A stretch of DNA of 64,000 nt from Escherichia coli 042 (GCF_000027125.1 NC_017626.1); one strand, 5' to 3'; positions 25,087 to 29,193 are shown, counted from the stretch's first letter. Translations and numbers: made by a program. The notes: a model not told the origin generated them from the letters alone.

Positions 25087-28000
25087 TTGAGCCAGGAATA
25101 CACTGAAGACAAAGAAGTCACATTGACAAAGTTAAGTAGCGGCCGCCGCCTTCTGGAGGCGTTGCTGATCCTTATTGTCCTGTTTGCCGTCTGGTTGATG
25201 GCTGCCTTACTAAGCTTTAACCCTTCGGACCCCAGCTGGTCGCAAACGGCCTGGCATGAACCTATCCATAATTTAGGTGGGATGCCCGGTGCGTGGCTGG
25301 CAGATACGCTGTTCTTTATTTTTGGCGTGATGGCTTACACCATTCCCGTCATTATTGTCGGCGGTTGTTGGTTTGCCTGGCGTCATCAGTCCAGCGACGA
25401 ATACATTGATTATTTTGCCGTTTCGCTACGCATCATTGGCGTTTTGGCGCTCATCCTTACCTCCTGTGGTCTGGCGGCAATCAACGCTGACGATATCTGG
25501 TATTTTGCCTCCGGTGGCGTCATTGGCAGCTTACTAAGCACTACGCTACAACCACTGCTACACAGTAGCGGGGGAACTATTGCGCTGCTCTGCGTTTGGG
25601 CAGCGGGCCTGACGCTGTTCACCGGTTGGTCATGGGTGACCATTGCTGAAAAACTCGGCGGCTGGATTTTAAATATTCTTACCTTCGCCAGTAATCGTAC
25701 CCGTCGCGATGATACCTGGGTCGATGAAGATGAGTATGAAGATGACGAAGAGTATGAAGATGAAAATCACGGCAAACAGCATGAATCACGCCGTGCTCGT
25801 ATTCTTCGCGGCGCGCTAGCGCGTCGTAAACGGTTGGCGGAAAAATTCATTAATCCGATGGGGCGGCAAACAGACGCTGCGTTGTTCTCCGGTAAGCGGA
25901 TGGATGATGACGAAGAGATTACCTACACTGCACGCGGTGTGGCTGCCGACCCTGACGACGTCCTCTTTTCGGGCAATCGTGCAACGCAGCCAGAATATGA
26001 CGAGTACGATCCATTATTAAACGGTGCGCCAATTACCGAACCTGTTGCTGTAGCAGCTGCTGCTACCACGGCGACGCAAAGCTGGGCTGCACCGGTTGAA
26101 CCTGTGACTCAGACGCCATCTGTTGCCTCTGTTGATGTTGCACCTGCACAACCTACAGTAGCCTGGCAGCCTGTACCGGGGCCACAAACGGGAGAGCCGG
26201 TGATTGCTCCTGCACCGGAAGGTTACCCACAGCAGCCACAATATGCGCAGCCTGCAGTGCAATATAATGAGCCGCTGCAACAACCTGTACAGCCACAGCA
26301 GCCGTATTATGCGCCTGCGGCGGAACAACCTGTTCAGCAACCGTATTACGCAACTGCGCCGGAACAGTCTGCGCAACAGTCGTATTACGCCCCTGCGCCA
26401 GAACAATCGGTGGCAGGTAACGCCTGGCAAGCCGAAGAGCAGCAATCCACTTTTGCTCCACAGTCTACATACCAGACTGAGCAAACTTATCAGCAGCCAG
26501 TCGCTCAGGAGCCGTTGTACCAACAGCCGCAACCTGTTGAACAGCAGCCTGTTGTGGAGCCTGAACCCGTTGTAGAAGAGACAAAACCCGCGCGTCCGCC
26601 GCTTTACTACTTTGAAGAAGTGGAAGAGAAGCGAGCCCGTGAACGTGAACAACTTGCGGCCTGGTATCAACCGATTCCAGAACCGGTTAAAGAACCAGAA
26701 CCGATCAAATCTTCGCTGAAAGCACCTTCTGTTGCAGCAGTACCTCCAGTAGAAGCCGCTGCCGCTGTTTCTCCGCTGGCATCTGGCGTGAAAAAAGCGA
26801 CACTGGCGACGGGGGCTGCCGCAACCGTTGCCGCGCCAGTCTTCAGTCTGGCAAATAGCGGTGGACCGCGTCCGCAGGTCAAAGAGGGGATTGGCCCGCA
26901 GTTGCCACGACCGAAACGTATCCGCGTGCCAACTCGTCGTGAATTGGCGTCTTACGGTATTAAGCTGCCCTCACAGCGTGCGGCGGAAGAAAAAGCCCGT
27001 GAAGCCCAGCGCAATCAGTACGATTCTGGCGATCAGTACAACGATGATGAAATCGATGCGATGCAGCAGGATGAACTGGCACGTCAGTTCGCCCAGACAC
27101 AGCAGCAACGCTATGGCGAACAGTATCAACATGATGTGCCCGTAAACGCAGAAGATGCAGATGCTGCGGCAGAGGCTGAACTGGCTCGTCAGTTTGCGCA
27201 AACTCAACAACAACGTTATTCCGGCGAACAACCGGCTGGGGCGAATCCGTTCTCGCTGGATGATTTTGAATTTTCGCCAATGAAAGCGTTGCTGGATGAT
27301 GGTCCACACGAACCGTTGTTTACGCCAATTGTTGAACCTGTACAGCAGCCGCAACAACCGGTTGCACCGCAGCAGCAGTATCAGCAGCCACAACAGCCGG
27401 TTGCGCCACAGCAGCAATATCAGCAGCCGCAACAGCCGGTTGCGCCGCAGCAGCAGTATCAGCAGCCACAACAGCAGGTTGCGCCGCAGCCACAATATCA
27501 GCAGCCGCAACAACCGGTTGCGCCACAGCAGCAATATCAGCAGCCGCAACAGCCGGTTGCGCCGCAGCAGCAGTATCAACAGCTGCAACAACCGGTTGCA
27601 CCGCAGCCGCAGTATCAGCAGCCACAACAGCCAGTTGCGCCACAGCCGCAGGATACCCTGCTTCATCCGCTGTTGATGCGCAATGGTGACAGCCGTCCGT
27701 TGCATAAACCGACGACGCCGCTGCCTTCTCTGGATTTGCTGACGCCGCCGCCGAGCGAAGTGGAGCCGGTAGATACCTTTGCGCTTGAACAAATGGCGCG
27801 CCTGGTGGAAGCGCGTCTGGCTGATTTCCGTATTAAAGCCGATGTCGTCAATTATTCTCCGGGGCCGGTTATCACTCGCTTTGAATTGAACCTGGCACCG
27901 GGCGTAAAAGCGGCGCGTATTTCTAACTTGTCACGTGACCTTGCCCGTTCACTTTCGACGGTGGCGGTGCGTGTCGTTGAAGTTATTCCTGGCAAACCCT

Positions 28001-29193
28001 ATGTAGGTCTGGAGTTACCGAATAAAAAACGACAAACCGTATATCTGCGCGAAGTTTTGGATAACGCCAAATTCCGCGATAATCCGTCGCCATTAACCGT
28101 GGTACTGGGTAAAGATATCGCCGGTGAGCCGGTGGTTGCCGATCTGGCGAAAATGCCGCACTTGTTGGTTGCGGGGACTACCGGTTCCGGTAAGTCTGTC
28201 GGTGTGAACGCGATGATCCTGAGCATGCTTTATAAAGCACAGCCAGAAGATGTGCGTTTCATCATGATCGACCCGAAAATGCTGGAGCTTTCGGTTTATG
28301 AAGGCATTCCGCATCTGTTAACGGAAGTCGTTACCGACATGAAAGATGCTGCCAACGCTTTGCGCTGGTGCGTAAATGAAATGGAACGTCGTTATAAGCT
28401 GATGTCCGCCCTAGGTGTGCGTAATCTGGCGGGTTATAACGAAAAAATTGCTGAAGCCGATCGCATGATGCGTCCGATTCCAGACCCGTACTGGAAGCCG
28501 GGTGACAGTATGGACGCCCAGCATCCGGTGCTGAAAAAAGAACCATACATTGTGGTTTTGGTGGACGAATTTGCCGACCTGATGATGACCGTAGGTAAAA
28601 AAGTGGAAGAGCTGATAGCACGTCTGGCGCAAAAAGCCCGTGCCGCGGGTATCCACCTCGTACTGGCAACTCAGCGTCCATCGGTTGATGTTATTACTGG
28701 TCTGATTAAAGCGAATATTCCGACCCGTATCGCCTTTACCGTATCCAGTAAGATTGACTCACGTACCATTCTTGATCAGGCTGGTGCGGAATCACTGCTG
28801 GGTATGGGGGATATGCTCTACTCTGGGCCGAACTCCACGTTGCCGGTACGTGTCCATGGTGCTTTTGTTCGCGATCAGGAAGTTCATGCCGTGGTGCAGG
28901 ACTGGAAAGCGCGTGGTCGCCCACAGTATGTTGATGGCATCACCTCCGACAGCGAAAGCGAAGGTGGCGCGGGCGGTTTCGATGGCGCTGAAGAGCTGGA
29001 TCCGTTGTTCGATCAGGCGGTGCAGTTTGTCACTGAAAAACGCAAAGCATCAATTTCTGGCGTACAGCGTCAGTTCCGCATTGGTTATAACCGTGCAGCG
29101 CGTATTATCGAACAGATGGAAGCGCAGGGGATTGTCAGCGAACAGGGGCACAACGGTAATCGTGAAGTGCTGGCCCCACCGCCGTTTGACTAA
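25087..29193 (+). CDS. ftsK: DNA translocase FtsK (N-terminal membrane domain, Pro/Gln-rich linker, C-terminal RecA-like motor with gamma domain)
   Basis: 1368-aa [54 protein letters not shown]...; Walker A GTTGSGKS in the motor; long PQQ-repeat linker. Confidence 0.96.
27343..27650 (+). repeat. Tandem 39-bp in-frame repeats in the ftsK linker (about 8 units encoding [13 protein letters not shown])
   Basis: Near-identical units cagcagccgcaacagccggttgcgccgcagcagcagtat repeated head-to-tail; it also generates spurious reverse-strand ORFs. Confidence 0.9.

Follow-up and report, generated by a model that had tools for sequence, protein, structure and literature searches.

The eight-unit tandem repeat that lies within ftsK in Escherichia coli 042 is the known MLVA locus CVN001, which is also ms07; it has already been described, and there is nothing new in it. 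In the window, a term used here for the whole 64,000-nucleotide stretch of DNA that was analysed, this repeat occupies positions 27343–27654 on the + strand and is referred to below as array B. It is very probably best understood as the known VNTR of the FtsK linker, that is, an in-frame minisatellite that is neutral or nearly so, resides in a length-tolerant tether, gains and loses units when slippage or unequal recombination occurs, and undergoes concerted evolution. The linker VNTR is a strain-typing marker that has been in use since 2007–2008. The locus has little discovery value, because this marker has served to type E. coli, Shigella and Salmonella as a matter of routine for almost twenty years and the length variation of the linker is itself known.

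Array B and its place in FtsK

The ftsK gene encodes the DNA translocase of the divisome and occupies positions 25087–29193 (+ strand), with a TTG start and 1368 codons plus a stop (ORF listing, Pfam and RefSeq). In the encoded protein, Pfam places FtsK_4TM at residues 20–191, FtsK_alpha at 879–979, FtsK_SpoIIIE at 987–1200 and FtsK_gamma at 1303–1363. The RefSeq chromosome of strain TUM1886, which is 100% identical over the query, has an annotated ftsK of 4107 nt at this locus; its neighbours are lrp on the upstream side and lolA and rarA on the downstream side. The gene has been described as essential (PMC8627665).

Array B comprises eight in-frame units of 39 bp (13 codons), which encode FtsK residues 753–856, the final 104 residues of the Pro/Gln-rich linker. 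Tandem Repeats Finder (TRF) detects it at 27343–27651 with a 39-bp period (7.9 copies, 87% matches, no indels, score 464), and also with a 117-bp super-period (2.6 copies, 89% matches). TRF and dissection of the individual units thus bear out the eight near-identical in-frame units that an earlier reading of the sequence, the first-pass annotation, had described. Only array B and the second ftsK array, described below, reach a TRF score of at least 100 in the 64-kb window, and the tandem periodicity of array B is therefore far beyond chance.

The unit consensus consists of a ten-residue stretch followed by (Q/P)QY. Five of the eight units encode one and the same 13-residue peptide, and the remaining units encode two further 13-residue versions and a distinct 13-residue terminal version; the unit ends in Tyr in seven of the eight and in Asp in the last. 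Gln accounts for 52% and Pro for 24% of the array, the corresponding values for the whole linker (residues 191–856) being 17% and 14%. Codon differences from the consensus among the units of the window are mostly synonymous (16 synonymous and 6 non-synonymous, or 16 of 22), a count of events that are non-independent because the units share ancestry. The longest exact internal repeat is 65 bp, at an offset of 117 bp.

The C-terminal motor of FtsK, made up of the alpha, beta and gamma domains (27655–29190, + strand), has its first residue directly after array B. In an alignment with 2IUS, the 512-aa construct of the E. coli protein that was crystallised, the window FtsK is covered from residue 857 to residue 1368, and residue 857 corresponds to nucleotide 27655. 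As this alignment starts at residue 857 and array B ends at residue 856, array B is the last segment of the FtsK linker and adjoins the crystallised motor domain. An AlphaFold2 model of array B and the start of the motor, computed from a shallow alignment of eight orthologues, has a mean pLDDT of 33, with the control motor region also below 50; no secondary structure is assigned to array B in this model, in which the control scores so low.

Identity with published typing markers

The published primers for CVN001 and for ms07 have their sites on both sides of the array. The Camelena-type CVN001 forward primer (PMC11773471) matches exactly at 27228–27248 (+ strand), and the Lindstedt forward primer (PMC8143711), which is equal to its 3' 19 nt, matches exactly at 27230–27248 (+ strand). 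The corresponding reverse primers match on the − strand at 27722–27743 (Camelena-type, exact) and 27733–27752 (Lindstedt, one mismatch). For ms07, the forward site lies at 27083–27102 (+ strand, exact) and the reverse site at 27728–27747 (− strand, one mismatch). None of these CVN001 and ms07 primer matches would be expected in the window by chance.

The Lindstedt primers give an in silico amplicon of 523 bp from the window, and the CVN001 allele formula, (product − 250)/39 (PMC8143711), then yields (523 − 250)/39 = 7.0, or CVN001 allele 7, so that the CVN001 allele number is the number of array B units minus 1. The in silico ms07 amplicon is 665 bp, corresponding to 8 units. Published sizes of ms07, a 39-bp locus, are 392–821 bp (PMC8215070), equal to 1–12 units on the scale used here. 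In an E. coli MLVA primer table the locus is named 'CNV001 (ftsK)' (PMC11773471). Because both sets of primers bracket array B, the unit is 39 bp and the allele formula fits, array B is identified as CVN001/ms07. The window can be typed directly as CVN001 allele 7, ms07 8 units and ms06 3 units, the last of these from the second array. The first-pass annotation had described the repeat without recognising it as a named and routinely typed marker.

Copy-number variation among strains

With an 801-bp query, an array B match was found in 5425 of 5426 complete E. coli genomes, and the match spans differ by multiples of 39 bp. Twelve representative genomes were dissected, making 13 alleles with the window. 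These contain 1, 2, 5, 6, 7, 8 or 9 whole units, all in frame, and three of them also contain truncated 15-bp units encoding QQPQY. The single-unit allele (L009) and the two-unit allele (L010) are both present in complete genomes.

Frequencies were estimated from a sample of 60 of the 5426 genomes, spread over the ranking and drawn from a clinically biased genome collection. Seven units were found in 26 genomes (~43%), six units in 21 (~35%; seven 6-unit calls were inferred from an alignment pattern identical to that of the K-12 record, which was checked directly), eight units in 5 (~8%) and other alleles in 8. After conversion to CVN001 alleles, by subtraction of one unit, these frequencies agree with those obtained by PCR in Sweden (allele 5, 40%; allele 6, 40%; allele 7, 13%; allele 8, 5%; PMC5217547). 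Among public FtsK proteins, the 120 with the highest scores all come from E. coli or Shigella and have 6–13 units in array B, a set that is biased to long alleles because extra repeats raise the score, and in which some long alleles derive from short-read contigs and could be mis-assembled. Outside the arrays, FtsK has a constant length of 1225 aa in nearly all of these best 120 proteins. Across the E. coli and Shigella sequences (130-odd alleles), array B thus ranges from 1 to 13 units and is always in frame.

Given its share of the spread sample and the maximum of 13 units, the eight-unit array is a moderately common allele and no unusual expansion. The term 'expanded', used in the first-pass annotation, is too strong for an allele carried by ~8% of the sample. 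Its proposal of a length-variation hotspot was sound: complete genomes have 1, 2 or 5–9 units, proteins have up to 13, and the VNTR has been in the literature since 2007. An identical count in all strains is excluded by the mixed composition of the 60-genome sample.

Array A and the length difference from K-12

The linker contains another VNTR with 39-bp units in frame, array A, which TRF located at 26296–26412 (+ strand), ~1 kb upstream of array B. It has three units, 39 residues in all. Array A is the published MLVA locus ms06, the primer sites of which lie at 26186–26205 and 26506–26525 and define a 340-bp amplicon. The published ms06 is a 39-bp locus with sizes of 301–379 bp and alleles 2, 3 and 4 (PMC8215070). 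Array A has 2, 3 or 4 units in the 13 aligned alleles and up to 5 in the best 120 proteins; in the spread sample of 60 genomes, 2 units were found in 19, 3 units in 21 and 4 units in 19.

The K-12 ftsK gene has 3990 nt and encodes 1329 aa, the length stated in the first-pass annotation, and the FtsK of the window, correctly predicted there at 1368 aa, is 39 aa longer. That annotation had ascribed the excess to array B, which accounts for most of it (8 units versus 6 in K-12, or 26 of the 39 aa); the remaining 13 aa lie elsewhere in the gene, upstream in array A (3 units versus 2). The explanation thus holds for two-thirds of the excess, and for the other third the result is the one that the annotation had itself listed as a refutation. 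The FtsK of strain YZ_2_1 also has 1368 aa, but with 7 and 4 units in arrays B and A, versus 8 and 3 in the window. Where the E. coli proteins examined differ in FtsK length, nearly all of the difference is due to the two 39-bp arrays, and because both vary, a comparison of total ftsK length alone is misleading.

Assembly, overlapping reading frames and phase variation

Three long ORFs in the ORF listing overlap array B: one of 273 aa at 26971–27792 (− strand), with a periodic translation rich in leucine and arginine, one of 107 aa at 27320–27643 (− strand), and one of 126 aa in another + frame at 27296–27676. None of the three has a Pfam match at E ≤ 0.1, and the RefSeq annotation at the identical locus contains only ftsK, with no overlapping ORF. 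Array B is free of stop codons in five of the six frames, which is why these ORFs exist, and such arrays are a predictable source of false ORF calls in annotation. The long spurious ORFs that the first-pass annotation had noted on the opposite strand are therefore confirmed as such, and the 126-aa ORF adds one on the + strand.

Other accounts of the array can be set against this background. An array of 312 bp with a 65-bp exact internal repeat can mislead short-read assemblers, and the count of eight might in principle be wrong because short reads failed to span the repeat and it was expanded or collapsed in the assembly, a concern raised in the first-pass annotation. We regard such an artefact as having practically no chance of being the explanation: a complete RefSeq chromosome matches the 801-bp stretch at 100% identity and 170 complete-genome records match it at no less than 99%, the cluster headed by the exact 1368-aa protein has 508 members drawn from several sources, the distinguishing substitutions among the units suffice to anchor an assembly, and CVN001 allele 7 was found in 13% of Swedish isolates by PCR sizing, which is independent of assembly (PMC5217547). 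Identical complete genomes, the PCR-sized allele and the 508-member cluster together rule the artefact out for the eight-unit allele. Intragenic tandem repeats are also a classic substrate of phase variation, and the 273-aa and 107-aa ORFs on the − strand could suggest a gene opposite ftsK; that array B is a contingency locus, or the host of such a gene, is nonetheless scarcely credible. The unit is 13 codons long, and the frame is kept in all 130-odd alleles, even where 15-bp partial units occur. In-frame changes cannot switch FtsK off, and phase variation is rejected on this ground, while the finding that ST131 isolates are monomorphic at CVN001 (PMC5217547) argues against a high switching rate. 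As for a real opposite-strand gene, the translations are periodic and of low complexity, and it is ruled out by the lack of a Pfam match and of a RefSeq annotation and by the stop-free nature of the array.

How the array probably changes in length

The 65-bp exact repeat at 117-bp offset is ample for replication misalignment or unequal exchange. We infer that units of array B are gained and lost through replication slippage or unequal recombination between near-identical units. In many long alleles a heterogeneous block of 2–6 units is exactly duplicated in tandem, which suggests that steps of several units at once are common. Unit order often varies among alleles of equal length, with 40 distinct peptide strings among 9-unit alleles and 4 among 8-unit alleles. 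On the evidence of these strings there is size homoplasy at array B, and it limits size-based MLVA at CVN001/ms07.

The same processes of gain and loss may also homogenise the units within a lineage, which is concerted evolution. Copy number would change slowly and be stable within a clone, making array B a typing marker and not a switch; the monomorphic state of ST131 fits a slowly changing marker of this kind.

Orthologous arrays in other genera

When one genome per species was scanned with a degenerate DNA pattern encoding a ten-residue stretch, ftsK of Escherichia, Salmonella enterica arizonae and Citrobacter was the only place where matches recurred in tandem every 39 bp. Arrays at the orthologous site were seen in E. 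whittamii, Escherichia sp. MOD1, S. enterica arizonae and several Citrobacter species, and they are always flanked by PHEPLFTP on one side and by [DE][ST]L[LI] followed by 12 further residues on the other. In the S. enterica arizonae locus (L020), 13-residue units at 39-bp spacing lie between PHEPLFTP and a 15-residue flank. The pattern also matched eight times in unrelated taxa, among them Streptomyces, Bifidobacterium and Phycisphaeraceae; these matches are single and non-tandem, fall in PQ-rich proteins other than FtsK, and were attributed to chance.

All units of an array use the same Val codon, but which one depends on the species: E. coli has GTT, S. arizonae GTA and C. sedlakii GTC. The peptide is conserved across the genera. 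Private unit variants also occur: Escherichia sp. MOD1 has QPPQQ… and C. sedlakii has …QQHY. A codon that is uniform within each array and differs between species, in a peptide that is kept, appears to reflect concerted evolution together with purifying selection on the repeat peptide.

Significance of the copy number

Array B forms the end segment of a long tether that joins the membrane anchor of FtsK to its DNA-pumping motor. As one unit amounts to ~2% of this tether of ~650 residues, and a strain with a single unit exists, the copy number is probably neutral or nearly so. Dissections of the FtsK linker have relied on large deletions, and a literature search found no experiment on natural unit-by-unit variation in the array B segment.

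The alternative is that the copy number is adaptive, the Tyr-punctuated Gln/Pro units serving as modules for multivalent interaction or to gauge length. The number of units would then tune the reach of the motor from the septum, the clustering of FtsK or its engagement with the divisome, and alleles would be selected in each lineage. Escherichia, Salmonella and Citrobacter share the unit peptide but differ at synonymous sites, and the predominance of synonymous differences among the units of the window points the same way. Parts of the linker have moreover been reported to interact with FtsQ, FtsL, FtsI and FtsZ, and linker mutations lead to filamentation (PMC5357621), but we have not seen these interactions mapped to the array B segment. 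Natural strains have anything from 1 to 13 units, equal lengths are reached through many unit orders, in a manner that resembles drift more than selection for a set length, and two units alter the tether by only ~4%. In S. Enteritidis, swapping ftsK repeat alleles left egg-white survival unchanged (PMC6137255), this being the sole allele swap found and one in which a single, unrelated phenotype was scored. Taken with this evidence, an adaptive copy number is unlikely.

A more specific proposal, to which we assign a still smaller likelihood, is that array B acts as a 'sticker-spacer' module, in which tyrosines spaced in a Gln/Pro background beside the motor promote self-association of FtsK or contacts with the divisome and the copy number (1–13) tunes the valency. 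If so, alleles would differ subtly in dimer resolution or in the timing of division. A near-neutral copy number, which we favour, concerns the number of units and not their sequence: the strong conservation of the 13-mer in three genera indicates that it is no free filler, and it may have a function beyond spacing.

Comparison with known systems

Array B agrees in locus, unit and gene with CVN001 of the generic E. coli MLVA (Lindstedt et al. 2007), which was reused in GECM-7/GECM-10 and also by Camelena et al. (2019). The published CVN001 allele range of 4–8 agrees with the 5–9 units counted most often here, and rarer alleles outside that range were found in the present analysis, with 1, 2 or 10–13 units or with partial units. 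There is no difference between array B and ms07 of the Shigella/E. coli MLVA panel (PMC8215070, where it is credited to a French study), so that a single array goes by both names, ms07 and CVN001. The published 301–379 bp of ms06 likewise correspond to 2–4 units on the scale used here, as in array A.

With the FtsK linker (FtsK_L) as a whole, array B shares the richness in Q and P and the location between the 4TM anchor and the motor. According to a review, the linker is unstructured and PQ-rich, its length varies between species and it is engaged in divisome contacts; its composition, too, is known to differ among species (PMC5357621).

The closest counterpart outside E. coli and Shigella is STTR7/SENTR2 of Salmonella, an orthologous ftsK array with a 39-bp unit that varies between serovars and also serves MLVA. 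STTR7 has been named 'the variable PQ repeat region' (PMC8627665), and SENTR2 has a 39-bp unit in 9.3 copies in S. Enteritidis (PMC2430564). The Salmonella array differs from that of E. coli in its species-specific synonymous codons (Val GTA versus GTT) and in its copy numbers, and an 84-bp indel has been reported in the Salmonella ftsK repeats (PMC6137255), so that some of their units differ in length.

A second repeat array in the ftsK linker

The linker of FtsK contains a second in-frame variable-number tandem repeat with a 39-bp unit, array A (26296-26412), which comprises three similar units of 13 residues each and is the published locus ms06. The copy number of this array ranges from two to five units across strains. 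FtsK of the window is 39 residues longer than that of K-12, and array A contributes 13 of these. The 41 nucleotides directly 5′ of array A (26267-26307), encoding 13 residues, align in one register with the units of array B, the array at the C-terminal end of the linker (compared at 27341-27654), with 71–78% identity. Judged from this similarity, the two arrays, both with a 39-bp period, may have a common origin.

Partial units and repeats of apparently fixed length

Truncated units of 15 bp, encoding QQPQY and at times occurring as two consecutive copies, are present in some alleles of array B (loci L006, L007 and L008 from other genomes, and the public FtsK proteins P0043, P0044, P0054 and P0065). 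These units imply 24-bp deletions within a unit of the array, and because of them array B amplicon sizes depart from multiples of 39 bp.

Shortly upstream of array B lies a dispersed 42-bp direct repeat (27073-27114 and 27178-27219), the copies of which are 105 bp apart and each encode 14 residues; the site of the ms07 forward primer falls within the first copy. No length variation of this region was found among the 13 aligned alleles. A short GATGAA/GAAGAG micro-repeat in the early linker (25723-25764) encodes an acidic patch of 14 residues. Its length appears to be fixed, as suggested by the constant length of 1225 residues outside the two arrays in nearly all of the 120 best-scoring public FtsK proteins.

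The public E. coli FtsK P0027 (1461 residues) carries a 93-residue tandem duplication within the N-terminal four-helix membrane domain, which could be either genuine or the result of faulty assembly. Another group of proteins, 1382 residues long, has one additional residue that lies outside both arrays.

Array B in other species

A ten-residue match to the repeat unit was detected singly, rather than in tandem, in unrelated proteins with PQ-rich sequence, which come from Streptomyces, Bifidobacterium, Demequina and Phycisphaeraceae as well as from a number of metagenome bins (L013, L015-L019, L023 and L027). These matches were judged to be chance similarities in low-complexity sequence.

In the orthologues of array B (L020 from S. 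enterica arizonae, L024 and L021), the valine codon of the unit is the same throughout the array of each species and differs between species (GTA, GTC or GTT), and some of these species possess private unit variants. Together, this codon pattern and the private variants represent a clear, small case of a coding minisatellite whose units evolve in concert.
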